A DNA stretch of 64,000 nt from Candidatus Omnitrophota bacterium. GTDB taxonomy: Bacteria > Ratteibacteria > UBA8468 > B48-G9 > DTJG01. Location of the stretch: positions 1-64,000 of the forward strand of contig JAMDAS010000001.1 in assembly GCA_023484085.1 (NCBI GenBank), read 5' to 3'. The notes beneath the pieces were generated by a model. The model had not been told where the DNA came from. It ran no database searches and saw nothing but the letters and a program-made list of their open reading frames with translations. Made by a program: the position numbers and the translations under genes. This document shows positions 20,443-54,938 of this stretch, in pieces; positions within the stretch are counted from its first letter, which is position 1, and each line of letters starts with the position of its first letter.

Positions 20443-20461
20443 AATTCCCTCCACTCCCCCT

Positions 20462-34094: not shown

Positions 34095-34117
34095 ATTTTT
34101 CTCCTCACTTGTTCACT

Positions 34118-34208
34118 GTAAATATTCACTAAGACAGTGTTTCCGCCTCAAAGACAATCCACACTTATTTCAAATACTGTTCACTGAGTATTCACTGCAA
34201 ATATTCAC
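34118..34208. repeat. MITE-like repeat copy R6 (C+B modules with TIRs) inserted between nuoM and nuoN
   Basis: gtaaatattcactaagacagtgtttccgcctcaaagacaatccacacttatttcaaatactgttcactgagtattcac; abuts nuoM stop codon. Confidence 0.85.
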
Positions 34209-35785: not shown

Positions 35786-35802
35786 AAATTGTCCTTATAA
35801 GG

Positions 35803-37701: not shown

Positions 37702-37703
37702 AT

Positions 37704-38006
37704 TTATCCTTTAAGAACGTTCATGTCATCCACGTCCATACTTTCTTTTTTATGAAATATGCTGATTATTATCGCAAGCCCGACTATCACTTCTGCAGCA
37801 GCCACAGTGATGCTGAAAAAAACGTATACCTGTCCCTTTGGAAGCATCATATATCTTGCAAAAGAGACAAAAGCAAGGTTAACTGCATTCAGCATAATTT
37901 CAACAGACATTAACATTACAAGAACGTTTTTCCTTACTAAAACCCCGCTTGTCCCTATGACAAAAAGAACCCCGCTCAACACCAGATAAAGTTTTATAGG
38001 TATCAT
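37704..38006 (-). CDS. nuoK: NADH-quinone oxidoreductase subunit K
   Basis: 100 aa, three TM helices. Confidence 0.85.
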   Translation of the reverse strand: MIPIKLYLVLSGVLFVIGTSGVLVRKNVLVMLMSVEIMLNAVNLAFVSFARYMMLPKGQVYVFFSITVAAAEVIVGLAIIISIFHKKESMDVDDMNVLKG

Positions 38007-38509
38007 TGCTCTGACCTCCTGAGGTACACAGCACCTATTATCGCCACAAGAAGAATCAAAGAGGTAATTTCAAACGGAACAAGGTACCTCTTAAATAAGA
38101 GCTGTCCAAGACTGACAATCCCACCGAAATTCTCAAACGAAAGAGACGAAGGGCTTTTCCCTGCACTTGCATACAAACCACAAGACAGGACATATACAAG
38201 TTCAAACAGGAATATCAAAAGCAACGGCATAATGAGAAATTTCTGGAAAGACATTTTACCGAAGCGGTTTTCCACTACAGGCGGCATCATCATTATTACG
38301 AACAAAAAAAGAACCATTACGGCACCTGCATAAATGAGTACCTGGACAACTGCAAGAAACTCCGAATGCAGTGTCAGATAAATAAGGGAAAGAACGACAA
38401 GATTAGCAATAAAATAAAGAGCGCTGTAAACCGGTCGTTTCTCCACTACAACCGCGATTGCCGTAAAAACCGACAGAATGCCGAGAATTAAAAATATTAT
38501 CAGTCCCAT
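38003..38509 (-). CDS. nuoJ: NADH-quinone oxidoreductase subunit J
   Basis: 168 aa membrane subunit, operon position. Confidence 0.8.
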
Positions 38510-39021
38510 GGGTATTTTTTATCCATTTCACCCGGCTCTTTTTCCAGGAGCATCTCTTTGGTATAGATTAGCCTGTCCCTGTCATATTCTGACAATTCAT
38601 ATTCAGGGCACATGTTAAGCGCAAAGGTCGGGCATGCCTCCACGCAAAGTCCGCAAAAGATACATCTTATCATGTTTATTTCGTATACCATGGCATATCT
38701 TTCACCTTTTGAATATCTTGCTTTTTCCGTGTTTTCACCGGCTTCAACGTAGATTGCCTCTGCAGGACACGCCACCGCGCACAAGGAACATCCCACACAT
38801 TTTTCCAATCCATCCTCATGTCTTGCAAGCCAGTGTCTTCCATGAAATCTGCGATAAAGCTTCCTTCTTTTTTCCGGGTACTGATAAGTCACCTTCTTTT
38901 TAAATATGTATCCGAAGGTAACCCTGAACCCTTTCAGAAAGTTTATTATGTCCCGGATTATATTATCATTGCTCCTGTTATTAGTATCCATATTAAAGAA
39001 AATGGTAAAAGAACCTTCCAC
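38500..39021 (-). CDS. nuoI: NADH-quinone oxidoreductase subunit I (2x[4Fe-4S])
   Basis: [12 protein letters not shown] and [12 protein letters not shown] motifs; true start may be the internal MDTNN (38991). Confidence 0.85.
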
Positions 39022-39950
39022 TGAAACATCATTAATTTGTCATATCTTAACCTGGGATAAGTAGCCCTGAGCCAGATAAAGAAAAACAACATTGCAGCAA
39101 CCTTCAGCAGGAACCATATAAACGGCGGGAAAAAAGAAGGTCCAAGCCAGCCGCCAAAGAATAAGGTAACCGCTAATGCACTGAAGGTAATCATACTTGC
39201 ATATTCAGCCATAAAAAACATTGCAAATTTAAAACTGCTGTATTCTGTGTGATACCCTGCAACCAATTCTGTCTCTGCCTCAGGGAAATCAAACGGAGCC
39301 CTGTTTGTTTCCGCAATGCTGCTTATTAAAAACACGATGAAAGCCGGGAACTGCATAAGTATGAACCAATGTCTGCTTTGTGCCGCAACGATACTCCTGA
39401 GACTCAAAGAATGACTGAGCAGCAGCACTCCAACCATGGACAGGCCCAGTGGCAACTCATAGCTTATCATCTGGGCACAGCTTCGCATTCCTCCAAAGAA
39501 CGAATACTTGGAGTTGGAAGACCATCCTGCCAATACAATTCCGTAAACGTTGATTGCAAATATTGCAAGAAGATAAAGTACCCCCACGTTCAGGTTGGTA
39601 ATCTGGAGAGGAATCCGGACATTGTGAATGATGAGATCTCTTCCAAATGGTATTATGGCAAATGCCATAAAAGCTGTAAACACTGAAATACAGGGCGCAA
39701 GAATGAAAAGAAACCTGTCAGCTCCTGCAGGCGTAAGGTCTTCTTTCAGAAAAAGTTTGGTTATGTCAGCAAAAGGCTGAAGGAGTCCTATGGGTCCTAC
39801 CCTGTTGGGCCCAATTCTTGACTGCATAAAAGCAATAAGCTTACGTTCTGCATAAATTAAAAATGCAATGGTTAAAAGCAGTCCTATAAAGACCAGAAGT
39901 ATCAGAATTATTTTCGCAACCAACCATATAATAAAAACTTCTTTTGGCAT
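38958..39950 (-). CDS. nuoH: NADH-quinone oxidoreductase subunit H
   Basis: 330 aa; NuoH/ND1 family. Confidence 0.85.
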
Positions 39951-39951
39951 G

Positions 39952-42369
39952 TTATTCCTTTCTAATGTCCACTTCTACAAAACCCTCTTCCGAATCTTTT
40001 AAAATGTTTAGAGGACAGGCTATATCATCAGTCATAACCGCGTACCCCGGCTGAACGTCTTTCATGGTAGAAACCATGACCTTCAACTCCCCGAGGTTAT
40101 TGAATACCGTTACAGCATCGCCATCCATTAGACCGGATTTTTCTGCATCAGAAGGACTTATGCATACCCCGGGTTTAAAGAAAAACTTAATGGCGCCACA
40201 GCGGGAAATAAATTTGTCTCTGGCAAACATGTTTTTCCCTTCAACAAGGACAAATGGAAATTTCCCGGGCTTTTCAAAAATCCGTACAGGCAGAAATTTT
40301 TCCCTGCAGGAATCTTTTTTCTGCAGTACAGAAAGCATCTCATTTCTCAAGTCATCAATTATATCATACCTCATTGAATAACCCAGTCTTTCAGCGAGCC
40401 GTGTTATGGTTTTCCATTCACTTTCCATCCCTTCCTTTATTCCTTCCTGAAGTTCCCGGGTAAGTCCGCCGGAACATATAAAACTGCCTTGTTTGGCATG
40501 AGGTGCTTTTCCGGGAAGAACTATGCTGGCATATTGAGCGGCTTCAGTCAGAAAAACATCCTGTGCCACAATGAATTCAACGTTCTTAAGAACTGCTCCC
40601 ATTTTTTTTCTGTCCAAAAACTCAGATACAGGGTCAGAACCCAATAAATAAAGAAACTTCAATTTCCCTGATAAAGCAGCGTCAATAATTTTTCTGGCAT
40701 TACAACTTTCCGGCATTAATTTCATCGCACCCCTGTGATTGGGCTGTGAAAAAACCGGCAGAACTTTTGACTTTACCCTGCCTTTTTGGACATTATTCAA
40801 AGCCATACCAAGGTTGTGGGCAGAAAACAAAAGGGATTCTTTCTCCCCATCAATTATGATTGTCCACCCCTCTTTATCCAAAAGCAAAGACGAAACTTTT
40901 TCCATGGTTTCTTTTGTAACCCCTGTAGTCTGCTCCACGGCTTCCATGGTAATTTCTTTAAAGGAGTTCCTGAATTCTTCAAAGCCTTCAATGCGTGAGA
41001 GATCTTCCCTGTTTTCAGGATTCAGCATGCAAAGTATAAGACCATAGAGCAGATATGCTTCTGTCCCTGGTCTGTAGCAAACAGATAAAGATGCACAATC
41101 CTCCATTCCTGTTTTATACGGTTCTGCAAGAAGAAGAGTTGAGCCTTTCCTCTTTGCACGGTTACGCAGGTAAAGGCCAAGAACCGGCTGCTGGTGCAGA
41201 ATGTTTGTCCCCAATACAAAAACCCCTCCGGAACCAGGCAGGTCTGAATATTCCGCACTTTCATCCAAAATGGCATTAACCTGACCGCTGTCAGAAAATC
41301 TGCTCCTGAAATCAACATTTGGTGAACCAATACAGTCTTTAAAAAGTTTTTTAAAAAGGTATATTTCCTCGCAGGTAGATGCAGAAGATATGATACCCCC
41401 TACAGAATCCGGACCTGATTCTGCAATACTTTTTTTCAGCCTAAAAACAATCATGTCCATTGCCTTTTCATAAGTGACAGGAATAAATCCATCATTTTGC
41501 TTTATCATCGGTGTTCTGACCCGCTCTCCTGAAGAAAGATACTCAAAATCAAACTGACCCCTGTCGCACAAAAAATTATTAAGAATTCCATGATTACTAT
41601 TATTACTACAATTATTATTTCTGTCAGGGGTAATCCTCAATATTCTGTTGTTTCTTGACCAAAGCCTGATACTGCAACCGGTCCCGCAGCCAGGGCATAC
41701 AGAGGTTATGAATTTCATATCCCAAACCCTTGCCTTGAATCTATAAACCTTGTCTGTAAGAGCGCCGACAGGACAAAGAAAAATGGTGTTACCGGAAAAC
41801 CCGGGGTTGAATTCAGTTTTGTAAAAAGTTCTTATGTCGGTTTCTGCAGCTCTGTTAAACTCTCCAAGCGTGGTTTCACCGCCATATTCATCATAGAACC
41901 TTACGCATCTTTTACATAGGATGCACCTGTTCATTTCTCTTTCCACCAGGGGACCTATGTAATACTTCTGAAAGGTTCTCTTATGCTCTTTGAATTTGGC
42001 TACTGCGGGCCCGTATCTATGAGAAAAATTCTGAAGGTCGCATTCTCCACCCTGGTCGCATACAGGACAATCAAGAGGATGGTTGGCAAGTAAGAATCCA
42101 ATAACCCCCTTTCTTCTTTTTTGCACCAATGGAGTATTGGTTCTTACAACCATTCCGTTTTTAACCTCAAGCGTGCACGACGTCTGAAGCTTGGGAATGC
42201 CCTCAACTTCCACAAGGCATACCCTGCAGCATCCAACCGATTTCAAGAGAGGGTGGTAGCAATAATAGGGAATCTCTATCCCCAATTTTTTTGCTGCCTC
42301 AATTACCATTGTCCCTTCCTGTACGGTTACTTCCCTTCCATCAATTGTCAGTGTGATTGCATTTCCCAT
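39952..42369 (-). CDS. nuoG: NADH-quinone oxidoreductase subunit G
   Basis: N-terminal 2Fe-2S/4Fe-4S cysteine clusters (CYHPLLKSVGCCRVC, HPLDCPVCDQGGEC) and molybdopterin-oxidoreductase-like C-terminal region; 805 aa. Confidence 0.85.
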   Translation of the reverse strand: MGNAITLTIDGREVTVQEGTMVIEAAKKLGIEIPYYCYHPLLKSVGCCRVCLVEVEGIPKLQTSCTLEVKNGMVVRTNTPLVQKRRKGVIGFLLANHPLDCPVCDQGGECDLQNFSHRYGPAVAKFKEHKRTFQKYYIGPLVEREMNRCILCKRCVRFYDEYGGETTLGEFNRAAETDIRTFYKTEFNPGFSGNTIFLCPVGALTDKVYRFKARVWDMKFITSVCPGCGTGCSIRLWSRNNRILRITPDRNNNCSNNSNHGILNNFLCDRGQFDFEYLSSGERVRTPMIKQNDGFIPVTYEKAMDMIVFRLKKSIAESGPDSVGGIISSASTCEEIYLFKKLFKDCIGSPNVDFRSRFSDSGQVNAILDESAEYSDLPGSGGVFVLGTNILHQQPVLGLYLRNRAKRKGSTLLLAEPYKTGMEDCASLSVCYRPGTEAYLLYGLILCMLNPENREDLSRIEGFEEFRNSFKEITMEAVEQTTGVTKETMEKVSSLLLDKEGWTIIIDGEKESLLFSAHNLGMALNNVQKGRVKSKVLPVFSQPNHRGAMKLMPESCNARKIIDAALSGKLKFLYLLGSDPVSEFLDRKKMGAVLKNVEFIVAQDVFLTEAAQYASIVLPGKAPHAKQGSFICSGGLTRELQEGIKEGMESEWKTITRLAERLGYSMRYDIIDDLRNEMLSVLQKKDSCREKFLPVRIFEKPGKFPFVLVEGKNMFARDKFISRCGAIKFFFKPGVCISPSDAEKSGLMDGDAVTVFNNLGELKVMVSTMKDVQPGYAVMTDDIACPLNILKDSEEGFVEVDIRKE

Positions 42370-43606
42370 TTATGTGTTCCTCGTATTCTTTTCTGAAATA
42401 TTTTATACTGCTTACAACCGGCATAGTTGCAGCATCCCCAAGAGGACAAAAGGTTGTCCCGTAAATATCGTGGGATATGCTTAGAAGAAGGTCTATGTCT
42501 CCATCTCTTCCCTTGTTGTCCATAATCCGTTTATAAACCTTTGCCAGCCAGTCTGTCCCTTCCCTGCATGGACTGCATTTTCCACAGGATTCATCCCTAT
42601 AAAACTTCACCAATCTCGCCGCTGTTTTTACCATGCACCTGTCTTCATTCAAGACTATTACTGCACCTGAACCAAGCATAGACCCTGCTTTTTTAAGCGA
42701 TTCAAAATCCATTTCAATGTTTAAATGAGCATCAGTGAGTATAGGTGTGGATGAGCCTCCAGGAAAAAAGGCTTTCAATTTTTTGCCATCCTTTATTCCA
42801 TCAGCCATTTTTAGTAATTCTTTAAATGATATTCCCATAGGAGTTTCATAAACTCCCGGTTTATTCACGTCCCCGCTTATGCAGAAAATTTTTGTGCCTG
42901 TGCTATGTGGAGTTCCAATACCTGCAAACCATTCAGCACCATTGTCTATTATGCGCGGAATGTTTGCCAGAGTCTCTACGTTATTTATCATGGTAGGTGA
43001 AGCGTAAAGCCCGACAACTACAGGAAAAGGAGGCTTGAGTCTGGGCATGCCTCTTCTTCCTTCAAGAGAATCAAGAAGAGCCGTCTCTTCACCGCATATG
43101 TAGGCTCCTGCACCCCTGAAAACATCAATGTCAATGTCAAGCCCTGACCCGAGAACGTTTTTACCGAGAAACCCCGCCTCCCTTGCCTGGTTGATTGCAC
43201 TGACAAGAATATCCGCGCCCATGGCAAACTCACCTCTTATGTATATGTATGCCTTATGTGCGCCAATTGCATAGCTTGAAATAGCCATCCCCTCAATCAA
43301 TAAATGCGGGTCACCCTCTATAATTGCCCTGTCTTTAAACGTCCCCGGTTCACCCTCATCAGCATTGCATACAAGATATTTAGGTTTAGGTGAGGTTTTT
43401 GGTATAAAACCCCATTTCTTACCCGTAGGAAAACCTGCCCCACCTCTTCCTCTTAATCCTGATTTATCAACTAATTGAATTATCTCATCAGGTTTATATT
43501 CAGAAAGTGCACGCGGCAAGGCTTTATATCCACCATTCTTCATATATGTCCCAATATTTTTCTGTTCAGGTACGTCTGCATATTTCAAAACTATTTTTTC
43601 ACTCAT
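42341..43606 (-). CDS. nuoF: NADH-quinone oxidoreductase subunit F
   Basis: GRGGAGFPTGKKW FMN/NADH site; C-terminal ESCGKCSPCREG 4Fe-4S motif. Confidence 0.9.
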   Translation of the reverse strand: MSEKIVLKYADVPEQKNIGTYMKNGGYKALPRALSEYKPDEIIQLVDKSGLRGRGGAGFPTGKKWGFIPKTSPKPKYLVCNADEGEPGTFKDRAIIEGDPHLLIEGMAISSYAIGAHKAYIYIRGEFAMGADILVSAINQAREAGFLGKNVLGSGLDIDIDVFRGAGAYICGEETALLDSLEGRRGMPRLKPPFPVVVGLYASPTMINNVETLANIPRIIDNGAEWFAGIGTPHSTGTKIFCISGDVNKPGVYETPMGISFKELLKMADGIKDGKKLKAFFPGGSSTPILTDAHLNIEMDFESLKKAGSMLGSGAVIVLNEDRCMVKTAARLVKFYRDESCGKCSPCREGTDWLAKVYKRIMDNKGRDGDIDLLLSISHDIYGTTFCPLGDAATMPVVSSIKYFRKEYEEHINGKCNHTDN

Positions 43607-43620
43607 AATATCCTTAAAAA

Positions 43621-43664
43621 CAACCCAAACTTATTTTTTACTTTAGTTCCGTATAAATATTCAT
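43621..43664. repeat. Truncated repeat fragment R7 between nuoF and nuoE
   Basis: caacccaaacttatttttta…gtataaatattcat. Confidence 0.5.
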
Positions 43665-43681
43665 TATATTGAAATTTAATA

Positions 43682-44161
43682 TTATTGTTTCTCCATCTCC
43701 GATATAATCTTTTCCATTTTTTCGTTTGTCATATTCTCGTAATAGGTATTATTTATCTGCACCACAGGTGCGCCGCCGCAGGCACCGAGACATTCAACGG
43801 TCCGTAGTGCAAATTTACCATCAACTGTTATCTGCCCTTCTTTAATATTCAGTCTGTTTTCCAAAAAAGTGATAATTTTCTCTGCTCCGTGAAGTCCGCA
43901 TGATACATTAGAACACACATAAATCATGTATTGGGCAGAAGGGCTGGTATTGAACATGCCATAAAATGACAACACTGACCCTATCTCAGTAGAACTCAAC
44001 CCCAGAACATCTGCAACCGTTTCCACGTTTTCCTTTGATATGTATCCGTATTTTTTCTGAACAAACTGCAACATCGGTAAAATTGCAGACCTTGGAGTAT
44101 TATATCTTTTCAGAATGCCCTGAAAATCTTTTTCAAGTAAGGTATTTATGCTGTTTTCCAT
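43682..44161 (-). CDS. nuoE: NADH-quinone oxidoreductase subunit E
   Basis: Thioredoxin-like 2Fe-2S subunit (CSNVSCGLHGAE…CLGACGGAPV). Confidence 0.85.
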   Translation of the reverse strand: MENSINTLLEKDFQGILKRYNTPRSAILPMLQFVQKKYGYISKENVETVADVLGLSSTEIGSVLSFYGMFNTSPSAQYMIYVCSNVSCGLHGAEKIITFLENRLNIKEGQITVDGKFALRTVECLGACGGAPVVQINNTYYENMTNEKMEKIISEMEKQ

Positions 44162-45369
44162 TATCTATCTACATCCCCCAACACTATGTCTATACTGGCA
44201 ATTACCGCTATCACGTCCGATATCATTATTCCTTTTAACATTAAAGGTAATGCCTGCAAATTTGCAAAAGAAGGAGTTCTGACCTTTAATCTATATGGCT
44301 TATTCCCGCCATCACTCACAAGGTAAAATCCCAGTTCACCCCTTGCGGATTCCACAGCAACGTACGTTTCTCCTTCAGGGACAGGAAACCCGGCACTGAC
44401 TATCTTAAAATGGTGTATCATCTCCTCCATCCCAAGTTCCGCATTTCTTTTCGGTGGAAGAATAATGTCCGGTCTGTCAACAACGTTAACAGGACCTGAT
44501 GGAAGATTTTTGACTGCCTGTGAAATAATTCTTAAACTCTGGCGCATTTCCTCCATTCTCACCAAATACCTGTCGTACACGTCGCCATGAGTTCCCACCG
44601 GAACGTCAAATTCAAAAAGCTCATACCCTGAGTAAGGATGCGCAGTCCGGATATCCCACTTAACACCACTTGCCCTGAGAAGAGGTCCGCTTACCCCGAA
44701 ATTGATTGCATCCTCTGCAGAAAGAACCCCTAATCCCACGGTTCTTTCCTTCCAGATTATATTTTTCGTCAAAAGGGTTTCATATTCATTTATCTTTGAT
44801 GGGAATACGTTAATAAAATTTTTTAATCGGTCTATAAATCCATCAGGGAAATCCAGGTAAAATCCGCCCACTCTCATATAACCTGAATTCATCCTGTATC
44901 CTGAACACATTTCAAAAAGTTCAAGTATAAGTTCTCTTTCCCTGAAAGTATAAAGCATTACACTCATGGCTCCTAATTCAAGCGCATGGGTTCCCAGCCA
45001 TACAAGATGGCTTGCAATTCTCTGAAGCTCGCAAAGTATAATCCTCATAAACTTTACGCGCTCAGGCACCTCAATGCCAAGAAGCTTTTCAACGGCAAGA
45101 ATATATCCAATTTCATTAAAAAAACAGGACAGGTAATCCATCCTGTCCACTATGGTGATTGCCTGGACGTATCTTTCAGACTCAATGGTCTTTTCCATTC
45201 CTGTATGAAGATAGCCAATCACCGTATTTGAATTTACAACAATTTCACCATCCAGCTCCAGAACAACCCGCAAAACCCCGTGCGTACTGGGATGTTGGGG
45301 TCCCACATTCAATATCATTGTATCTCTTTCAGTCTCTGTATTTACCATGGTCTGTCCTGTTTGGTCCAT
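44161..45369 (-). CDS. nuoD: NADH-quinone oxidoreductase subunit D
   Basis: 402 aa NiFe-hydrogenase large-subunit-like 49-kDa subunit. Confidence 0.9.
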
Positions 45370-45827
45370 TTGGCAGGTATAAAACCCTTCAAAGGATAAT
45401 CTTTACGCAAAGGGTATCCTGTCCAATCATCCGGCATCAAAATACGCTTCATAGCAGGATGCCCTGAAAATTTTATTCCATACATGTCAAAAACCTCTCT
45501 TTCAAACCAGTTTGCACCCCTCCATACAGATGATACGGATGGAACAGAATGGTTTTCCGGAACGAGCACCTTAAGCGTAAGCCTGTTTTTATTTTTCATT
45601 GAATAAACGTGATATACCACTGCAAATCTCGGTTCTTTTCCTAAATAATCAACACCGGATATGCCAGAGATATAATCATATGCAAGATCTTCATCGTCAT
45701 GCAGGAACCGGCACACATTTACTATGTCCCCGGGGTTTACCAGCACTGTCGTCTCATTTCTGCATGTTTTTACTTCAAGAACTGCGTCAGAACATTTTTC
45801 TTTGAGTTTTTCTGTCAGATTATTCAT
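45342..45827 (-). CDS. nuoC: NADH-quinone oxidoreductase subunit C
   Basis: 161 aa 30-kDa subunit, separate from nuoD. Confidence 0.85.
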
Positions 45828-46300
45828 ATTCTTAGTTTTTCCCTGTCAATCTTTTGTTGCAGTTTCATAACCCCCTGAAGCAGAAGCTCCGGTCTTGGAG
45901 GACATCCAGGAACATAAACGTCAACAGGTACTATTTCATCAACACCCTGAACCACAGCATAATTTTTAAAAACACCGCCACATGAGGCACAGGCACCCAT
46001 TGCAATAACCCATTTTGGTTCCGCCATCTGATCGTATAACTGCCGTAGAACAGGTGCCATTTTGCGGGAAACCCTGCCCGCCACTATCATCAGGTCTGAC
46101 TGTCGCGGTGAGCCCCTGAACACTTCTGACCCAAACCGGGCTATGTCATGATGGGAAGCTGAGGTTGCCATCATTTCTATGGCGCAGCATGCCAATCCGA
46201 ATGTCATAGGCCAAATAGAGGACCTACGCGCCCAGTTGGTAATCTTTGTCAGACTGGTCAGAATGATACGATTGCTTATTAAAAACTCTTTTTCTCCCAC
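45824..46300 (-). CDS. nuoB: NADH-quinone oxidoreductase subunit B
   Basis: CCAIEMM … GACASCGG … PGCPP cluster N2 motifs. Confidence 0.9.
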
Positions 46301-46647
46301 TCAAATCCTCCACGTTTCAGAACGTATAGATACCCTGCAAGAAGAACCAAAATAAAAATAACCATTTCCACGTAACCTGGAACCCCGAGCTTTTTAAACA
46401 CCACTGCCCAGGGATAAACAAATACCAATTCCACGTCAAATACGACAAACAGCATAGCAACAGGATAAAACTTTATGGGGAATCTTTTCCTTGCAACGTC
46501 TTCAGGTATTATTCCACACTCGTAGGGAACAGATTTCGCCGCACCCGGGTTTTTAGGCCCGATAAAATTTGATAAAACCACCGACGTAAGAATAAAAAAA
46601 CCTACGAGCGCCGCCAAAATGAATAATGGTAAATAGATATAAATCAT
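46279..46647 (-). CDS. nuoA: NADH-quinone oxidoreductase subunit A
   Basis: 122 aa, three TM helices, first gene of operon. Confidence 0.85.
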
Positions 46648-47895: not shown

Positions 47896-48495
47896 TTATT
47901 TAAGAAATAAAGCCCAATATAAAGCAACTGCTTTTTTAACAGCAAATGCAGCGGAAGATGATGAAATAGTAGCGCCGCTTACCGAATCAATATCCTTTCC
48001 AACTTCAATTGGACTTTTAATGTTTTTCCCGATAAACTGTTTCAGCCAGACCTTGTTTGCAATGGGTCTGCCCCATTGTTCCCTATATTTCATAACCACA
48101 ACTCTTTTCACTGACCCATCAGGATTTAGACCTATCATAAATGTGTTCTGTCCCCATCTTCCCGGTTCAACGTCTATAAGAGCCACACCTACTTCTTTTC
48201 CATCCCTGGTTCCTTTATAAAATGTAAAGGTAGTTGTAGGTTCTACCCCCCAATTTTCTCCTACAGGAGATTTGTATACTAATCTATCTCCTAATTTTCT
48301 TTCAACCTCACGTTTTTCTTCATGACTAACTAATTTTTTCACTATAGGTGTTATTTGCACTCCGGTTCCCAGCACCATTTGCAATGCCTGGTCTTGTGTA
48401 GCGAGTGTCTGGTAAGCGTTTGCCTGACTTGTTAAAAATAAAACACCCGCTCCTGCTGCTGCCAATAATAATAGCTTTTTACTCATTCTACACAT
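47896..48495 (-). CDS. Exported FMN-binding domain protein (ApbE substrate-type)
   Basis: Signal peptide; C-terminal DSVSGATISS flavinylation motif (S/T-G-A-T/S) of FMN_bind domains. Confidence 0.6.
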   Translation of the reverse strand: MCRMSKKLLLLAAAGAGVLFLTSQANAYQTLATQDQALQMVLGTGVQITPIVKKLVSHEEKREVERKLGDRLVYKSPVGENWGVEPTTTFTFYKGTRDGKEVGVALIDVEPGRWGQNTFMIGLNPDGSVKRVVVMKYREQWGRPIANKVWLKQFIGKNIKSPIEVGKDIDSVSGATISSSSAAFAVKKAVALYWALFLK

Positions 48496-48526
48496 TTTTT
48501 TGTTCCTCCTTTTTATTTGGACTTTC

Positions 48527-49588
48527 TTAGTTTGTGGTTCCTGATTTTTTTCCGCGTGTTTCCAAATCTTTTTTTAGACCCGGGCTGGTCCATAATTTCC
48601 CGGATTCCGTTATAATGATAGCCTGTATCTCTGGCTCTTTCTTTAATGCTTTCAAACCATTTTGGGGCCCCATAACAAAAAGAGTAGTCCCCCATGCATC
48701 AGTTAATGCTGCTCCTGGTCCGATAGCTGTTGTCCCTATAACGCCATGGGCAGGCCAGCCTGTTTTAGGATTAAAGATATGACTATACCTTTTGCCATTA
48801 TAAAAAAAATAATGTTCATAATCACCCGAAGAAGCAACATACAGGTCTTCTATTTTCATATATCCCAAAAGACCTTTACCCCGTGGTGATTTAATTCCAA
48901 CAACCCACATTTTTTTATTGTCTTTTCCTAATGCATATATATCCCCGCCACCATTAATCAAAGCAGATTTTATTCCATTTGCTTTTAATACTTTTACAGC
49001 CTGGCCAACAGCATAACCTTTTGTAAGAGCCCCCAAATCTATTTCAATACTCTTTTTATCCTTAATCAGTGCCCCATTATGAATCCTTAAATGCCACCAG
49101 CCAACATATTTAAGGGCTTTTCTTATGTTTTTTTCAGAAGGGACATGTGGATGTTCTGTATCAAAACCCCAGAGTGCAACCAGAGGGTGTATTGTAATAT
49201 CAAATGCTCCTCCTGATTCTTTGCTAATCTTTATTGCTTCTTTTACTACATGAAGAATATCCGGATTAGTAATTGGTGTTCCATAGTGATTAAATTTATA
49301 AACAGGACTTTTGGGATTTTCCGGGTTCATTTCATTTCCTATCTCTTCCATCCTGTCCATTGCTAAATTAATAGCATGGTCCGTAATCTTTTTATTCGGA
49401 CCATATGCAGATATAATTATATATGTATACATCATATAGCGCATTTCTTTATACAGGTGTTCTACACTACCATTTTGTTCATGCACTATAGATTGATGAT
49501 TTGTGTTATTCTCACCCCATACAACGTTTATTGAACACATCAACATAAAAATTAGTATTCCAGCAAAAACTTTATTTTTCATAAGCAT
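48527..49588 (-). CDS. apbE: FAD:protein FMN transferase (ApbE family)
   Basis: 353 aa ApbE family, signal peptide, adjacent to FMN-binding domain substrate gene. Confidence 0.75.
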   Translation of the reverse strand: MLMKNKVFAGILIFMLMCSINVVWGENNTNHQSIVHEQNGSVEHLYKEMRYMMYTYIIISAYGPNKKITDHAINLAMDRMEEIGNEMNPENPKSPVYKFNHYGTPITNPDILHVVKEAIKISKESGGAFDITIHPLVALWGFDTEHPHVPSEKNIRKALKYVGWWHLRIHNGALIKDKKSIEIDLGALTKGYAVGQAVKVLKANGIKSALINGGGDIYALGKDNKKMWVVGIKSPRGKGLLGYMKIEDLYVASSGDYEHYFFYNGKRYSHIFNPKTGWPAHGVIGTTAIGPGAALTDAWGTTLFVMGPQNGLKALKKEPEIQAIIITESGKLWTSPGLKKDLETRGKKSGTTN

Positions 49589-49601
49589 AAATTAAATATA
49601 T

Positions 49602-49619
49602 TTGTTGCTTTTTTCACAA
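49602..49619. promoter_or_regulatory. 18-bp TTGTGAA-N4-NNNACAA operator-like motif overlapping the apbE start region
   Basis: Minus-strand reading TTGTGAAAAAAGCAACAA; left half is perfect Rex half-site TTGTGAA; same architecture repeated twice upstream of porin gene. Confidence 0.35.
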
Positions 49620-49630
49620 ATATATATTCA

Positions 49631-49811
49631 GATATAAGTTATGGATTGCTCTTTCCTGCTTTATAAATTCACCACGACGCCTGTTTTTAGCAAACAGGCA
49701 GTCGCTCTCCAAAGAAGGCGGAGAGTATGCACAGGTAGTGCCTGTTCTGTGCATAATAAAGATTTAAAGACAATCCAAACTTACTTCAGACGTCGTTCAC
49801 TGAGTATTTAC
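49631..49811. repeat. Composite repeat copy R8 (module A + ~90-bp hairpin insert + module B)
   Basis: gatataagttatggattgctcttt…[cctgtttttagcaaacagg; ctctccaaagaaggcggagag hairpins]…agacaatccaaacttacttcag…cactgagtatttac. Confidence 0.8.
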
Positions 49812-49821
49812 GGTATTGTTA

Positions 49822-49866
49822 TGATAATAAAAATAATTTATCATATGAAAATTTTTTGTCAAATTT
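49822..49866 (-). promoter_or_regulatory. Candidate sigma70-type promoter module (TTGACA -35), duplicated at 51431-51476
   Basis: Minus strand: aaaTTTGACAaaaaattttcatatgaTAAATTattttt; -35 TTGACA, ~16-nt spacer, TAAATT -10-like; near-identical 45-bp copy downstream of the ubiA/menA-like gene. Confidence 0.3.
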
Positions 49867-49940
49867 CAGTTTTTCCCCCCATCTATTCTAAGAATAGATG
49901 GGGGGAATTATATACAACCTTTCAATTTTCCATGACTATA

Positions 49941-51275
49941 CTAAAAATCTGTTCGCCATCCAACGGTAAGCCTGCTATAGTCAAGACCGCCTATCTCCGG
50001 ATTGGTTGATTTTCCCACGGATAATTCACCCATAATAACCGATGTTGGCGTAATAAAATAGTCAACGCCGTAAGTTACAGTCTTATAGGTACTATAATAT
50101 CCATCAAAACCAGGATTACCCTCAATACCATCAACAGCAGAAAATCCGCCCGGTAAATCCTTTGCATAGGAATATTGTACAAGACTCTGCCATTTTGGAT
50201 TAAACCTGTAAAGACTTTCAATATAATAGGCATCCGTTTTAGCGTCTATCGTACCGGATACTGCACCAGGTACACTATCCCATTTGCCTCCTATCTCTTC
50301 ACCTTTCAAAGTCCATTTGGCATAATTCAAAACAAGCCCAAGTTCATCCCTTGAAAAATTATGGCTGCTGGTATTATCCCACTTACCTGCAAGATAAGAA
50401 CCCTCAAATTTCACCTGGCTATTACCGGACAGAAAAATATTTGGAGCAACATGGACCATGACTGCCTTTGACTGGTCAGTTCCAACATCGCTGCTGTTGA
50501 TAAAATTACTTAACAGATAAAAATATACAGGTATACCCCAGTTTCCTACATAATAGTGTTTATCAAGTTCCACTCCAGCAGCATGTAATGGTAGAACCCG
50601 GCACATTCCTGGCGGAAGATGATAAAGCTGTGTCCAGAAAATTCCTCTCGCGTACTCCTCAGAAAACTCTGGTGTTAATGCACCTGCTTTCAGGTCCCAT
50701 TCATGCGGTAATGATGCATCCACATACGCTTTCCATAAAGTGAATTTGTATCCGCTCATTGACCGGGTTATTCCTGGCGTTACATTCGGTGTAGCTAATG
50801 TAACAGCCTTTATCCAGGGGTCTACTTCTATACTAAGATTTGGTGTAATCTGCTTATGCATAAAAAGCCATAGCATACTAACTCCCGCACTTGGATTATT
50901 GGACTGGTTCGCCCCATCTTCCGTTCCCCATGACTGGTCAAAAAGATACAGCTTCAGGTGGCCATGAATGGTTAACGCTTTGCTCGCTTCTTCTTGTTGT
51001 TGTTTTTCTTGTTTGACGGATCTTTTTCGTAGATATTTAATACGTCTCAATGCTCTTGCTGTCCGTCTTGACTGGGTGGTTTGATTTTTCTCCAATTGGG
51101 TTACCTGTTTTTGTAATGTATTAAGCACTGATTGCAGTTGCTCAATCTTTTTTTGCAGTTTTGCAACCTGTTTACCGTTACCTGGATCCTGAGCCGCCCT
51201 GGCAGAAACGACTGTCAGCATTAACCCAGCCGCCATACATACTAAAATTAATTTCTTATACAGCATTTTTTTCAC
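49941..51275 (-). CDS. Outer-membrane beta-barrel (porin-like) protein with N-terminal coiled coil
   Basis: Signal peptide (MKKMLYKKLILVCMAAGLMLTVVSARAA), coiled-coil segment, alternating amphipathic strands, C-terminal …GWRTDF terminal-Phe OMP signature; strong AGGAGG SD. Confidence 0.55.
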   Translation of the reverse strand: MKKMLYKKLILVCMAAGLMLTVVSARAAQDPGNGKQVAKLQKKIEQLQSVLNTLQKQVTQLEKNQTTQSRRTARALRRIKYLRKRSVKQEKQQQEEASKALTIHGHLKLYLFDQSWGTEDGANQSNNPSAGVSMLWLFMHKQITPNLSIEVDPWIKAVTLATPNVTPGITRSMSGYKFTLWKAYVDASLPHEWDLKAGALTPEFSEEYARGIFWTQLYHLPPGMCRVLPLHAAGVELDKHYYVGNWGIPVYFYLLSNFINSSDVGTDQSKAVMVHVAPNIFLSGNSQVKFEGSYLAGKWDNTSSHNFSRDELGLVLNYAKWTLKGEEIGGKWDSVPGAVSGTIDAKTDAYYIESLYRFNPKWQSLVQYSYAKDLPGGFSAVDGIEGNPGFDGYYSTYKTVTYGVDYFITPTSVIMGELSVGKSTNPEIGGLDYSRLTVGWRTDF

Positions 51276-51498: not shown

Positions 51499-52356
51499 CT
51501 ATTTTATATAGCTGAAACTTAAAATAAATAAAGTGATCAGATAAACAGCAACAGACATGTTTATCACCGGAAGAAAATAATTTTTATTTTCATAATTTTT
51601 ATTCAGGGGGAATAAATTTTTCCAGAGCCATGGAATTATTGAAAACAGGATAACGGCAAACAACGGTATTTTTTTTAATACCAGCCCCAATCCAAGAAAT
51701 AAAAAAATAGAAATAAAACATATATTTATAATTCCGGTTATTTTTTGTTTCCCCATTTTTACCACTAAATTTCTTTTTCCTATCAGCTTATCCTGGTAGT
51801 AATCCGGAATCTCATTGAGAAGAGCCAAACAAAAAACAAATAGTCCGCAAATCAATGATGGCAATAATGGCTCTATGTTAATAGACTTTGTCTGGATATA
51901 ATAACTGCCATATACCATAAAAGGGCCATAAGATAATGCGATTACTGTCTCACCTAATCCCCGATATGCCCACCGTATAGGTGGACCCACATAAAAATAA
52001 GCCCCTAAAAATCCAAATAAAATAAAAAGAATAACAGGCCAGCCAACCTGAAAAGACAGGTAAATGCCGATAAAAGAGGCAAGCATAAAAACAAAAACAC
52101 CAAGCCGAAAAAAATAACGCGGAATCTCTTTCTTTTCAAGAGAAAATACACGGTCTCCTCCGGATTGAGAATCAAAATATTCATTAAACAACTCTACACC
52201 AACAAGCGTAAAAAAAATGCCCAGCAGGCCCAGCCAGAAGTAATTTTTAATTATCAGTCCTTTTGTATGGAAAGCTAATGATTGGCCTAAAAGATATGGA
52301 AGTAATCCCGCCCACAGGAAAAAACGGTATCTTATTAATGAAACAATTCTACCCAT
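51499..52356 (-). CDS. UbiA-superfamily membrane prenyltransferase, MenA-like Asp-rich motifs
   Basis: 285 aa, ~8 TM helices; first motif NEYFDSQSGGD (N[DE]YxDxxxGxD as in MenA), second motif NEIPDYYQD. 22-nt overlap with upstream radical SAM gene. Confidence 0.7.
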   Translation of the reverse strand: MGRIVSLIRYRFFLWAGLLPYLLGQSLAFHTKGLIIKNYFWLGLLGIFFTLVGVELFNEYFDSQSGGDRVFSLEKKEIPRYFFRLGVFVFMLASFIGIYLSFQVGWPVILFILFGFLGAYFYVGPPIRWAYRGLGETVIALSYGPFMVYGSYYIQTKSINIEPLLPSLICGLFVFCLALLNEIPDYYQDKLIGKRNLVVKMGKQKITGIINICFISIFLFLGLGLVLKKIPLFAVILFSIIPWLWKNLFPLNKNYENKNYFLPVINMSVAVYLITLFILSFSYIK

Positions 52357-53291
52357 TTATTTGATTCTGCCAAAAGTTTCGGCTCTTTGATAAGTCTGTC
52401 TATAAATTCCTGGACCTGGGGTTTCTGCCAGCTTATTTTGTAATTTTCCCACACCTGCTTTAATGTCTGTTTTTTCAAATTTCCGCAAACAAATGGCAGT
52501 GGTCCGATTAGTTTTACTTTTCCATTTGGTATTACAAGAAGACTGGCAGCAGGAGACATACGACGATATTTCAGTTCCTCTAAAACATCATAGGGATAGA
52601 AATAAACCTTCATTTTCCCATCATATTGTTTAAGTTTTTCATTTAAAGTGGTAAAAAACTCTTTATACTCTTCATCTGACGGGCAAAGTATGTCCCAATT
52701 TTGGGCTGCACGGCCAATCCTCATTATTTTCCCCGTATATATTCCATATACGCCAAGTGAATAGGCAAAATCTATTATCTGACCTATTTCATGGATGTTA
52801 AATTTAGTCGGTACAAACACAATCTCAGTATTGACACCTTTGGACTTCAATAATTTACAGGCATTCGTTGCCTTATTCCAGTTTCCACCCAATCTTAACT
52901 TCTCATGGGCAACCGACGTAGCACCGTCTAAACTTATCTGGACAGAACGAAGATTAAGCGAAGCAAATCGTTCTGCTTTTTTCTCATCAATATACTCACC
53001 ATTAGTTTCTATTTTAAGGTCTATTGAATTTTTTCTTAAGAATTCACACATTTCAAAAATATAAGGATGAAGTAATGGTTCGCCACCGGAAAAAGCTACG
53101 TATGGAATCTTTAGAGCAACAATCTGCTCTAAAACTTTAAAAGTTTCATCCCTTGATAACTTATCAGGCATACTATGTCCTGCCTCTTCACAGCAGTGCA
53201 GGCATCCAAGATTACATTCTGCATTTATCTGCCATGCAATAAATAATGGTGCCTCCAAATCATTAATATTTATTATATTGTTTTTATCCAT
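52335..53291 (-). CDS. Radical SAM enzyme (PqqE/AhbD/NirJ-like core) with Cys-poor SPASM-like C-terminal tail
   Basis: IAWQINAECNLGCLHC (CxxxCxxC); GGEPLL; C-terminal VIPNGKVKLIGPLPFVCGNLKKQTLKQVWEN matches SPASM terminal motif (…PCxx…GNxxxxSLxEIW) but only 2 downstream Cys. Confidence 0.75.
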   Translation of the reverse strand: MDKNNIININDLEAPLFIAWQINAECNLGCLHCCEEAGHSMPDKLSRDETFKVLEQIVALKIPYVAFSGGEPLLHPYIFEMCEFLRKNSIDLKIETNGEYIDEKKAERFASLNLRSVQISLDGATSVAHEKLRLGGNWNKATNACKLLKSKGVNTEIVFVPTKFNIHEIGQIIDFAYSLGVYGIYTGKIMRIGRAAQNWDILCPSDEEYKEFFTTLNEKLKQYDGKMKVYFYPYDVLEELKYRRMSPAASLLVIPNGKVKLIGPLPFVCGNLKKQTLKQVWENYKISWQKPQVQEFIDRLIKEPKLLAESNKWVELFH

Positions 53292-53330
53292 TGTTTTCCT
53301 TGTTTTTTTATTATTTCTTATGTGATTATC

Positions 53331-53582
53331 TCAGACTTCTATCAGAGAATTGTTTTTAAGGCTATCAATAAATGACAGGATGTCATTCTGTATCTCTGCA
53401 GGTTCTTTATTATATAAATCACTTAAAGACCGGACAATATTTTCAGAAGAATAACCCTGTTGAAGTAAATCCACAATGTCTTTACCTGTTTCATTGGTTA
53501 CAAATACTTTTTCTTTTAATGTATCAAAAATCACCTCACCGAATTTTTCATCTCTGGTTTTTACAAATTTTTTTAGTTTCAT
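53331..53582 (-). CDS. PqqD-family protein (RiPP recognition element)
   Basis: 83 aa; VTNETGKDIVDLLQQGYSSENIVRSLSDLYNKEPAEIQNDILSFIDSLKNNSLIE fits PqqD/RRE winged-helix pattern. Confidence 0.7.
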   Translation of the reverse strand: MKLKKFVKTRDEKFGEVIFDTLKEKVFVTNETGKDIVDLLQQGYSSENIVRSLSDLYNKEPAEIQNDILSFIDSLKNNSLIEV

Positions 53583-53604
53583 AATTTATCCATTAAGTTT
53601 ATAT

Positions 53605-53666
53605 TACAGACACTAAGGCACAAAGGAAAAATTGAAATATCTTTAAACTCTGAGCCTTTGTGCCTT
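53605..53666 (-). other. 12-bp-stem hairpin (aaggcacaaagg / cctttgtgcctt) between precursor peptide gene and pqqD-like gene
   Basis: Perfect 12-bp inverted repeat with 38-nt loop; no U tract after it; related hairpin module also occurs in repeat R5. Confidence 0.4.
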
Positions 53667-53694
53667 CAGTTCGTTAGGACCGGGTATTTACCTC

Positions 53695-53820
53695 TTATGT
53701 AAATCTGATATATGGCTGCGCCATTATTTTTTCTGAAACATCTTCTAATTCAGGCTTTTTCCATTCATGCTTTTGATTTTCCTGCTTTTGCATATTTTTC
53801 TTTTCAACAAATTTTTTCAT
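53695..53820 (-). CDS. Candidate precursor peptide (41 aa), PqqA-like core
   Basis: Not in ORF track (short). Perfect SD AGGAGG 5 nt upstream of ATG. Translation MKKFVEKKNMQKQENQKHEWKKPELEDVSEKIMAQPYIRFT. WKKP motif and W-to-Y spacing of 17 residues, same as PqqA (WKKPAF…EVTLY). First gene of the PqqD/rSAM/prenyltransferase operon. Confidence 0.55.
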   Translation of the reverse strand: MKKFVEKKNMQKQENQKHEWKKPELEDVSEKIMAQPYIRFT

Positions 53821-53933
53821 TTAATCCTCCTGTTATATTCAAAAAAATAAAAATTTATAAAGTTGATAAATCTACTAATATATATTTTATAACCATTTTT
53901 ATTTTTGTCAAAATTATTTCAGCCAGCCGGTTA

Positions 53934-54938
53934 CTACTTACATTTTGGTAAATTATTACGATTAAATCCAAGATTTGCAACCCATACATTCCCAGCAGAA
54001 TCTATTGCTATACCAACAGGGTTACTTACCACATCGTATGTTCCAATAGTTTTTCCACCGGGGCCAAGCTTTGTTACACCTTTACTCCCATAATTTGCAA
54101 CCCATACATTCCCGGTAGAATCTATCGCTATACCCCCGGGAAAACTTCCCACAGGATAAATCCCAATAGTTTTTCCACTAAAACTTAGTTTTGTTACATT
54201 ATCACTCCCCTCATTTGTAACCCATACATTTCCATGAGGGTTTATCGCTATACCAATTGGACCGCTTCCCACATGATAAATCCCGATAGTTTTTCCACTA
54301 AAACTTAGTTTTGTTACATTATTACTTCCCTCATTTACAACCCATACATTTCCATGAGGGTCTACTGCTATACCAATTGGACCGCTTCCCACAGGGTATG
54401 TCCCGATAGTTTTTCCACTAAAACTTAGTTTTGTTACATTATTACTGCGCCAATTGGCAACCCATACATTTCCATGATGGTCTATCGCTATACCATCAGG
54501 TCCTTTTCCCACAGGATATGTTCCTATAGTTTTTCCACTGGAATTTAGTTTGGTTACATTATTACTTACAGGATTTGCAATCCACACATTTCCAGCAGAA
54601 TCTATCGCTATACCCCAAGGTCCTTTTCCCACAGGATATGTTCCAATAGACTTTCCAGTTGAACTAAGCTTTGTTACATTATTACTTCCAAGGTTTGTAA
54701 TCCATACATTTCCAGTAGAATCTATTGCTATACCAATAGGTCCTTTTCCCACAGGATATGTTCCAATAGACTTTCCAGTTGAACTAAGCTTTGTTATACT
54801 GTTATTTCCAGCATTTGCAACCTGTACTTTTCCAGTAGAAGCCCAAACAATGGAATTAATAAAAAATAAATACAGAATTGCTCCATAGAAGACCAAAAAT
54901 TTTAATAATCTTTTACTCATAAGTTCCTCTTTTTTCAT
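53934..54938 (-). CDS. Secreted NHL/YVTN-type beta-propeller repeat protein
   Basis: Signal/anchor N-terminus, then eight ~40-aa tandem repeats (…NNVTKLSxSGKTIGTYPVGxGPxGIAIDxxGNVWVxN…); underlying DNA is a ~120-bp tandem array. Confidence 0.65.
   Translation of the reverse strand: MKKEELMSKRLLKFLVFYGAILYLFFINSIVWASTGKVQVANAGNNSITKLSSTGKSIGTYPVGKGPIGIAIDSTGNVWITNLGSNNVTKLSSTGKSIGTYPVGKGPWGIAIDSAGNVWIANPVSNNVTKLNSSGKTIGTYPVGKGPDGIAIDHHGNVWVANWRSNNVTKLSFSGKTIGTYPVGSGPIGIAVDPHGNVWVVNEGSNNVTKLSFSGKTIGIYHVGSGPIGIAINPHGNVWVTNEGSDNVTKLSFSGKTIGIYPVGSFPGGIAIDSTGNVWVANYGSKGVTKLGPGGKTIGTYDVVSNPVGIAIDSAGNVWVANLGFNRNNLPKCK

Follow-up and report, generated by a model that had tools for sequence, protein, structure and literature searches.

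A conserved cassette for a peptide, a radical SAM enzyme and a prenyltransferase that may make a membrane-anchored redox cofactor

What is made when a short ribosomal peptide, a peptide chaperone, an enzyme of the radical S-adenosylmethionine (SAM) type and a membrane prenyltransferase are encoded side by side? The question is raised by a locus of a Candidatus Omnitrophota bacterium (assembly GCA_023484085.1), found in what we call the window, i.e. the whole 64,000-nucleotide stretch that was analyzed (contig JAMDAS010000001.1, positions 1 to 64,000 of the forward strand). An earlier note, made from the sequence alone, had described four co-directional genes there and suggested an operon for a peptide-derived cofactor, and all four do lie on the minus strand between 51499 and 53820. 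We propose that this cassette makes a ribosomal-peptide-derived, polyprenylated membrane redox cofactor, a relative of pyrroloquinoline quinone (PQQ) and mycofactocin whose product would be lipid-anchored, and we give this reading a probability of about one half. The genes, with the ribosome-binding sequence ahead of the first, are as follows.

53695..53820, minus strand: precursor peptide, 41 amino acids (open reading frame translation: MKKFVEKKNMQKQENQKHEWKKPELEDVSEKIMAQPYIRFT)
53826..53830, minus strand: Shine-Dalgarno sequence GGAGG, 5 nt 5' of the peptide ATG, read from the sequence
53331..53582, minus strand: PqqD-family peptide chaperone (RiPP recognition element), 83 amino acids, Pfam PF05402
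52335..53291, minus strand: radical SAM enzyme with a PqqE-like fold, 318 amino acids, PF04055
51499..52356, minus strand: UbiA-superfamily membrane prenyltransferase of the MenA/UBIAD1 branch, 285 amino acids, PF01040

RiPP here stands for a peptide that is synthesized by ribosomes and modified post-translationally, and RRE below for its recognition element. The GGAGG that the note had seen ahead of the peptide gene is in place, and the UbiA and radical SAM genes overlap by 22 nt, also as it had said.

The peptide, annotated as a 'hypothetical protein' in every source that includes it, has three parts: a Lys-rich leader that varies in both sequence and length, a WxKPxLEDVS motif that is probably the chaperone-binding segment, and an invariant MAQPYIRFT C-terminus. 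The earlier note had staked its proposal on the small open reading frame (ORF) being kept in homologous neighborhoods, and it is kept: of the 61 fetched loci, 58 have immediately upstream an ORF that closes with W.[KRT]P.[LFM].[DE]VS..[VI]MAQPYIRFT and a stop codon, and contig ends truncate the other three. When the last 25 codons are compared over 56 distinct DNA versions, W-22, P-19, V-14, S-13 and every residue from M-9 to T-1 (counted back from the C-terminus) are invariant, and within this core the synonymous codons vary freely, with five codons in use for Arg and four each for Thr, Pro and Ala. Because the residues are fixed and the synonymous codons are free, the comparison speaks for a peptide and not for a DNA or RNA motif; at the level of sequence, it shows a peptide that is translated and under extreme purifying selection.

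How close is this peptide to PqqA, the precursor of PQQ? The earlier note had called it PqqA-like, which holds for the C-terminal register and fails for the Glu-x-x-x-Tyr pair, in which Glu is replaced by Met. Aligned without gaps from the C-terminus with PqqA of Klebsiella pneumoniae (a sequence that matches a protein annotated pqqA at 100%), the peptide shares W-22, K-21, K-20, P-19, D-15, Y-5 and I-4, an identity reached by only 16 of 100,000 shuffles; W-22, P-19, D-15, Y-5 and the four residues that follow the Tyr put this short precursor in the PqqA register. In PQQ biosynthesis, PqqE abstracts a hydrogen from the PqqA Glu and links this Glu to the Tyr four residues downstream (PMC10906245). 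The cassette peptide has its Tyr in place at -5, and at -9, the position of the cross-linking Glu, it has Met in 56 of 56 versions. Hidden Markov models (HMMs) of PqqA do not match the peptide even at E ≤ 10, and no Pfam or NCBIfam model does so at that threshold, the one exception being a lasso-peptide leader model whose start weakly matches the WxKPxL segment, so the likeness to PqqA is one of register, not of HMMs. The weak lasso-leader match may be read as in keeping with recognition by an RRE.

How widely are the four genes kept together? We call the gene order of the window (peptide-PqqD-radical SAM-UbiA) type I and counted over 58 non-redundant genome loci, 41 of which have enough flanking sequence. 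The peptide is present in all 41 of these, PqqD in 40 of 41 and UbiA, directly after the radical SAM gene, likewise in 40 of 41; where a gene is missing, a frameshift or a contig end seems to be the cause. In other words, the triad of PqqD, radical SAM enzyme and UbiA to which the note had drawn attention recurs, with UbiA as its fixed partner. A scan of one genome per Genome Taxonomy Database (GTDB) species gave 56 loci, all in metagenome-assembled genomes (MAGs), with labels of Omnitrophota, Planctomycetota (Phycisphaerae, Sedimentisphaerales, Pirellulales, Brocadiaceae), Elusimicrobia, Lentisphaerae, Aminicenantia, Calditrichaceae, WOR-3, Hydrogenedentota and Thermodesulfobacteriota, or about ten phyla by label; a few extra taxon labels on short contigs were not trusted.

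There is also a second architecture, type II, with the order PqqD-radical SAM 1-UbiA-radical SAM 2-peptide-radical SAM 3, which was first reached through distant radical SAM representatives (L063, L066/L067) and whose gene content was assigned by domain-level HMM mapping. The type II loci are listed here.

L063:3230-8140; L066:479-4710; L072, L081-L083, L086, L106, L113, L117, L123, L128, L134, L136

A scan of metagenomes with a degenerate DNA pattern for MAQPYIRFT and the stop codon, which is independent of the enzymes, returned at least 120 matches. Among the 80 of these loci that were analyzed, type II predominates, and many contig names look like those of soil samples; type I makes up most of the remainder. 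Every one of the 80 that reaches the UbiA position has UbiA, as does every type II locus that is long enough. The three paralogous radical SAM enzymes of L063 are 38-44% identical, and its UbiA 45% identical, to their window counterparts; even at such distances between the radical SAM enzymes the peptide core is unchanged, the peptides of L063 and L066 likewise ending in VMAQPYIRFT. Judged over all these loci, the recurrence of peptide and gene set is far beyond chance, and invariance of the core across phyla and across divergent radical SAM enzymes is the behavior of a cofactor precursor, unlike that of diversifying natural products. Two MAGs have two distinct cassette contigs each (L007 and L009 in JAUYCX01; L043 and L046 in CAJXAF01), for which the explanation is either that the entire cassette was duplicated or that the bin is mixed.

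The assignment of the second gene to the PqqD-family RREs stands (PF05402, 45.6 bits, E = 8.7e-12; cut-off 23.4). Its scores on the named PqqD subfamilies of NCBIfam all miss their cut-offs, with 24.9 against 46 for the PQQ-specific TIGR03859. The radical SAM enzyme matches PF04055 at 83.6 bits and has its cluster motif CxxxCxxC at C26/C30/C33; CxxxCxxCC is invariant among its homologues. The window enzyme is P0001 (100% identity), and many other homologues, from many phyla, are 59-87% identical to it. Its best NCBIfam matches are MftC (TIGR03962, 122.4 bits against 265) and AhbD (118 against 500), followed by NirJ2 (114 against 500), GeoRSP and PqqE (TIGR02109, 79.2 against 381). Since both the chaperone and the radical SAM enzyme miss every NCBIfam equivalog cut-off, neither falls into a characterized family, an outcome on which the note had also let its proposal depend.

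Does the radical SAM enzyme have the auxiliary clusters of its better known relatives? The earlier note had seen both a CxxxCxxC motif and a SPASM-like tail; the motif stands, and the tail turns out to be a fold region without cysteine ligands. There is no PF13186 match in the enzyme, and only C203 and C269 lie in its C-terminal half, each missing in at least one orthologue; SPASM cysteines are likewise lacking in the paralogues P0121-P0152. Because the C-terminal cysteines are not invariant and the paralogues have no SPASM cysteines either, the enzyme probably carries the SAM cluster only. An AlphaFold (AF2) model built with 16 homologues has a predicted local distance difference test (pLDDT) score of 81, and its best fold matches in the Protein Data Bank (PDB) are PqqE (6c8v), then SkfB (6efn) and SuiB, all of which are peptide maturases; by sequence, the best PDB match is SkfB at 61 bits, with PqqE also found. 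Taken together, model and sequence place the enzyme in the peptide-maturase class, outside any characterized family. With the SPASM/twitch maturases of RiPPs (SkfB, SuiB, the sactisynthases and the like) the cassette has RRE-dependent peptide modification in common, as far as this can be predicted; it differs from them in its lack of auxiliary-cluster cysteines, in a core peptide that is invariant where theirs is variable, and in that no export or protease genes belong to it in the loci examined.

The relatives of this enzyme outside the cassette bear on the range of its possible chemistry. Its nearest paralogues there, P0125 (47% identical) and P0132 (36%), are found in heme-biosynthesis clusters (L065:1139-5084 and L192:1276-5690, one of them from an Actinomycetota MAG) together with URO-D (hemE), ferrochelatase (hemH) and a putative hemY-type FAD oxidase, and no PqqD, peptide or UbiA gene was found in these two clusters. 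These paralogues may be O2-independent, AhbD-like coproheme decarboxylases that have no SPASM cysteines and replace HemQ or AhbD. Further off, P0137 and P0131 (34-38% identical) sit in ordinary RiPP clusters. That of P0137 (34%; L068:5718-10724) has a PqqD-fusion protein, a B12-binding radical SAM enzyme and an ABC transporter, and appears to show where the family grades into ordinary natural-product maturases. P0131, from a Thermoprotei archaeon, was considered as an archaeal counterpart of the cassette enzyme and rejected, as it belongs to a different peptide cluster that has no UbiA. A profile search with an alignment of the distant relatives was dominated by matches to the core family and gave no new subfamilies. 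The cassette enzymes would then belong to a SPASM-less clade with two kinds of substrate, peptides and the propionates of tetrapyrroles, and with MftC as the best HMM this makes oxidative decarboxylation plausible beside a PqqE-type C-C cross-link.

The prenyltransferase matches PF01040 at 83.3 bits against a cut-off of 34.2. Its top NCBIfam matches are all MenA models, each below cut-off (NF004749, 99.9 against 277; TIGR00751, 59.1 against 102.15), and its only PDB sequence match is UBIAD1 (8djk). It is 23% identical to Escherichia coli MenA. Both of the MenA-type Asp-rich motifs that the note had reported are present, the first as N58-x3-D62-x5-D68 and the second as N181-x3-D185-x3-D189 followed by GK..LVV, and in an alignment of four cassette UbiA proteins with E. 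coli MenA, N58, D62, D68, N181, D185 and D189 are invariant; the insertion that MenA has after motif 1 is absent from the cassette proteins. By these features UbiA is a MenA-branch prenyltransferase whose catalytic residues are intact, and it forms a distinct subfamily.

What might the product be used for? The earlier note had connected the cassette with respiratory genes near it in the window, and the connection is stronger than the window alone would indicate. The bioenergetic genes of the window are nuoA-N (32670-46647), which, like the ApbE and FMN-binding genes described below, comes within about 5 kb of the cassette, tatC, a pyridine-nucleotide oxidoreductase with a ferredoxin, and an H+-pyrophosphatase. 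Elsewhere, an nqr operon adjoins the cassette in 11 type I loci, mostly with the cassette directly after it, and partial nqr operons are found at contig ends in 6 more. The cassette is directly upstream of nqrF in L047, L053, L055 and L050, and in L047 and L053 it has nqrE upstream, so that in these two it lies inside the nqr operon; in L149 the peptide gene directly follows nqrE. In one such operon, that of L036, NqrB and NqrD score above their NCBIfam cut-offs and NqrC, NqrE and NqrF below them (NqrE and NqrF narrowly). A long-chain polyprenyl-diphosphate synthase, most like heptaprenyl-, solanesyl- and octaprenyl-diphosphate synthases and IdsA, is encoded within 9 kb of the cassette in 15 type I loci, often directly adjacent, and such a gene precedes PqqD in the type II loci L066 and L134. 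In type II, a NapC/NirT gene is often found before PqqD, before the peptide or after the third radical SAM gene; in L063 a gene for a NapC/NirT-type tetraheme protein overlaps the start of PqqD by 4 nt and MtrC/OmcA-like multiheme cytochromes adjoin, with a similar arrangement in L140. The NQR, complex I and NapC/NirT families all exchange electrons with the membrane quinone. A cassette that lies beside respiratory-chain genes in this way points to a product that is probably a peptide-derived, lipid-anchored redox cofactor.

Some of these neighborhoods are unusual in themselves. The adjacent nqr operons encode an NqrA-like subunit with a C-terminal RnfC-type Fe-S domain (L036:3480-8917; also L004, L007, L016, L023, L026, L028, L047 and L053), and in L003 a NuoE/NuoF/2Fe-2S module stands in place of NqrF; these operons look like RNF-NQR intermediates. 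A conserved protein of about 150 amino acids that has no family assignment is encoded after nqrF, flanking the cassette, in 9 loci (for example L036:8892-9383, L053:13011-13463 and L001:3277-3738). Its likeness to rubrerythrin and ferritin-like domains is sub-threshold, and it might serve the pathway as an accessory di-iron protein.

The window also has an exported FMN-binding protein (47896-48495) with a signal peptide and an SGAT flavinylation motif, and an ApbE FMN transferase (48527-49588). Together with a 444-amino-acid porin-like protein that has a coiled coil at its N-terminus, they lie just downstream of UbiA (47896-51275). ApbE and the FMN protein also occur as a pair close to the cassette in L006, L033 and L041, and only four of the examined loci have this pair there. 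The set of ApbE, FMN-binding and porin-like proteins recalls flavin-based extracellular electron-transfer loci. In Listeria, such a locus (DmkA, DmkB, FmnB, PplA, Ndh2) has genes for a dedicated MenA paralogue and a polyprenyl synthase next to those for an FMN transferase of the ApbE type and for an FMN-binding protein that is exported, and the UbiA of the window is similarly 2-3 kb from ApbE and from the exported FMN-binding protein; the Listeria locus, however, has no peptide, PqqD or radical SAM enzyme and uses demethylmenaquinone derived from 1,4-dihydroxy-2-naphthoate (DHNA).

Could the cassette simply encode one of the known pathways to a peptide-derived cofactor? With PQQ it shares, beside the register of the precursor, a discrete PqqD, a radical SAM enzyme whose best structural match is PqqE, and a core that is conserved as in a cofactor precursor. 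It differs in that its radical SAM enzyme has no SPASM cysteines and scores 79 bits against the 381 of the PqqE model, in the invariant Met that replaces the Glu cross-linked by PqqE, in a peptide that the PqqA models miss, and in having a membrane prenyltransferase as an obligate partner. The absence of PqqB and PqqC, noted earlier for the window, holds up: neither these nor men, mqn or ubi genes were found among the window ORFs of at least 120 amino acids that were scanned (most of them), neither PqqB nor PqqC adjoins the cassette in other loci or is a recurrent neighbor in the fetched stretches of the 58 genome and 80 metagenome loci, and no PqqF was seen with the cassette. With mycofactocin the cassette shares the layout of peptide, PqqD-type chaperone and radical SAM enzyme, MftC as the best NCBIfam match, and a conserved C-terminal core. 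Here the differences are a radical SAM score of 122 bits against 265, the lack of auxiliary clusters, a peptide that ends in PYIRFT where MftA ends in GVY, and no homologues of MftD, MftE or MftF seen near the cassette in the loci examined. The mycofactocin product is tailored by a glycosyltransferase, the counterpart of which in the cassette would be the prenyltransferase, and mycofactocin is accompanied by nicotinoprotein dehydrogenases, whereas the partners of the cassette are membrane respiratory complexes.

How, then, would a prenylated cofactor be made? We envision five steps. The 41-residue peptide would be made from its own strong ribosome-binding site, probably as a substrate that is consumed. 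PqqD would bind the WxKPxLEDVS segment and present the MAQPYIRFT tail to the radical SAM enzyme, which would abstract a hydrogen within M(-9)...Y(-5), the register of the cross-linked Glu and Tyr of PqqA. A modified or cross-linked Tyr ring is the likely outcome of this third step; possibly it is an oxidative decarboxylation of the MftC or AhbD type, perhaps at the C-terminus. The MenA-like enzyme would then add a long polyprenyl chain, supplied by the often adjacent polyprenyl-diphosphate synthase, to the modified aromatic ring, and the product would serve as a membrane electron acceptor or donor for NQR, complex I and enzymes of the NapC/NirT type. What the sequences show is the gene set and its conservation, a translated and invariant peptide, the classes of the enzymes and the neighborhood; the site and type of the radical SAM chemistry, the prenyl acceptor, any proteolytic trimming and the redox role are elements of the scheme that we infer. 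Since the Tyr side chain is a para-substituted phenol, like the UbiA substrate 4-hydroxybenzoate, it is chemically plausible by analogy that the peptide Tyr, or a ring that arises from it, becomes prenylated at the ortho position.

Several points weigh against the proposal of a prenylated, peptide-derived redox cofactor. No cultured organism carries the cassette. For a Tyr phenol to be turned into a quinone or quinol, one more oxygen at the least must be added, and there is no hydroxylase in the type I cassette. No peptidase is conserved in the cassette among the loci examined, and the product may for this reason remain a peptide. Only about 30% of the loci adjoin nqr, and about 26% a polyprenyl synthase. 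PqqE and MftC are thought to rely on auxiliary clusters in oxidative cross-linking, where these would take up the electron; the cassette radical SAM enzyme has none, and its own reaction may therefore be a different one. Finally, there are two invariant-core peptide genes that have no PqqD, radical SAM or UbiA gene within several kilobases (L111:900-1070 and L147:1070-1220), that of L111 following a gene for a NuoG-like 2Fe-2S protein; these may be extra copies of the precursor gene.

A more specific form of the proposal, which we offer tentatively and would not bet on at even odds, is that the product is the first isoprenoid respiratory carrier with a ribosomal-peptide head group, namely Tyr, possibly with the invariant Met, prenylated by the MenA-like enzyme. 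It would be the 'missing quinone' of Omnitrophota, of MAGs labeled as Planctomycetota (anaerobic ones, by MAG label), Elusimicrobiota and Lentisphaerota, and of the organisms in soil-rich samples that carry the three-radical-SAM cassette, and it would feed NQR, complex I and NapC/CymA chains by a route free of O2-dependent steps. The ring of the benzothiophene quinones of Sulfolobales derives from tyrosine. These quinones contain sulfur, and their biosynthetic route is unresolved (PMC13386864). It is our speculation that the invariant Met-x3-Tyr pair of the cassette peptide might give rise to a sulfur-bearing head group.

If no peptidase acts, could the final product itself be the peptide? Modified by the radical SAM enzyme, polyprenylated (for example on the Tyr ring or its oxygen) and so anchored in the membrane, it might be a bound cofactor, a subunit or an assembly factor of NQR or of other complexes. 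We think this unlikely, and it is nonetheless the strongest of the competing explanations: it would account for the missing peptidase, for the presence of the cassette inside nqr operons in some genomes, and for the at least 13 invariant positions among the C-terminal 22, which are more than would be needed if one or two residues survive. The last of these arguments is weakened by MftA, which has a long and conserved tail too, though no more than the two final residues of it are left in the product. Moreover, most loci have no nqr nearby, and the partners vary among NQR, NapC and complex I, which fits a shared mobile carrier better than a subunit.

Alternatively, two functions may stand side by side for co-regulation, UbiA being a divergent MenA that makes (demethyl)menaquinone from DHNA, and the peptide, PqqD and radical SAM enzyme making a soluble cofactor like PQQ or mycofactocin, or a modified peptide. 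The top HMMs of UbiA are indeed all MenA, both of its catalytic motifs match those of E. coli MenA, and a polyprenyl synthase and quinone-using neighbors would be equally expected beside an ordinary menA. In its fold family, its two Asp-rich motifs and the polyprenyl synthase and quinone-dependent enzymes nearby, the cassette UbiA does resemble MenA and UBIAD1. Its identity to E. coli MenA is low, however, its scores lie far under every MenA cut-off and it lacks the insertion after motif 1; it stays with the peptide and the radical SAM enzyme in two gene orders, between radical SAM paralogues in type II and with the 22-nt overlap in the window; and it is always found with the peptide-maturation module and never with another men or mqn gene in the loci examined. 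Separate functions thus strike us as rather improbable, and as a somewhat poorer account than a peptide that is itself the product.

An ordinary RiPP natural product, such as a prenylated lipopeptide antibiotic or signal, has in its favor that a short precursor, a PqqD-type RRE and a radical SAM enzyme together, as found here, are the standard RiPP arrangement, and that the distant relatives P0137 and P0131 are in typical RiPP clusters with transporters; we consider it very improbable, as the core is invariant across some ten labeled phyla and two architectures, there are no transporter, immunity or protease genes in the cassette in the loci examined, and the cassette is set among housekeeping and respiratory genes with a base composition like theirs. 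Equally hard to credit is a radical SAM enzyme that acts on a non-peptide substrate, as in an AhbD-like tetrapyrrole decarboxylation, with the small ORF as a regulator or chaperone: AhbD is the second-best HMM and the closest outside paralogues are in heme clusters that have no PqqD or peptide, but the AhbD and NirJ scores are below their cut-offs, the context is one of peptide, PqqD and UbiA and not of heme genes, PqqD (40 of 41) and a peptide in the PqqA register (41 of 41) accompany the enzyme in type I loci, its best fold match is PqqE, and the invariance of the peptide is difficult to square with a regulator.

Why would such a cofactor matter? To our knowledge, the head groups of respiratory quinones all come from small-molecule precursors, by chorismate/shikimate or homogentisate routes, and the few peptide-derived redox cofactors that we know of, PQQ and mycofactocin, are soluble. 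If the proposal of a prenylated, peptide-derived cofactor is true, a prenyl-anchored carrier of peptide origin would join these two worlds, and it could explain electron transport in lineages that have complex I, NQR or NapC and no recognizable quinone pathway. This gap is named explicitly in two recent surveys (PMC10066038, PMC13386864). In Omnitrophota, the inference of 'ubiquinone' rests on a UbiA-type enzyme that has no known source of a head group (PMC10066038), and a 2026 survey notes that in many lineages no known quinone pathway is present and holds it probable that more quinones will be discovered (PMC13386864). The proposal would also imply that a PqqE-like enzyme free of auxiliary clusters carries out a new reaction, and that an enzyme of the UbiA family uses an acceptor linked to a peptide. 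Full-text literature searches, which included the literal peptide string and had subscription-only papers outside their scope, found no published description of the cassette, and NCBIfam release 20 has no dedicated model for any of its four proteins. MAQPYIRFT is a ready marker for genome mining, and with four genes and a 41-amino-acid substrate the idea is directly testable.

Two further features of the window flank the peptide gene.

53884..53911, minus strand: promoter-like site TTGACA-16-TAAAAT, about 64 nt 5' of the peptide start codon, by consensus only
53615..53666, minus strand: stem-loop with a perfect 12-bp stem and no U-tract, directly 3' of the peptide stop codon, by RNA fold

The promoter-like site is the best consensus match of the region (11 of 12), a match that says nothing on function. 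The stem-loop has an RNA fold z-score of -3.6 against shuffles and may stabilize or attenuate the transcript; a comparable hairpin is found in only 18 of 62 loci, and a hairpin 3' of the peptide gene was therefore rejected as a defining feature of the cassette and is taken as a local one. A horizontal island was rejected too, because the GC content of the cassette is that of the surrounding window DNA and its neighbors are housekeeping genes. Two neighbors, an NHL-repeat gene upstream and the porin-like gene downstream, were tried as parts of the cassette and set aside, neither being conserved beyond the closest relative. The former, an NHL/YVTN beta-propeller gene (53934-54938), consists of about seven tandem 120-nt units that match at 82%; no homologue of it was found among the loci examined, which puts it outside the system. 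Far from the cassette, a plus-strand segment (15860-18186) with an Eco57I/N6 DNA methylase-like gene and a gene for a 222-amino-acid protein that has no family match interrupts a minus-strand run of housekeeping genes. Its GC content dips locally to 0.33 and the GC skew shifts there, and it may be an inserted restriction-modification element. Two phosphofructokinase paralogues (14525-15490 and 19423-20454), within 5 kb of each other, flank this methylase insertion.

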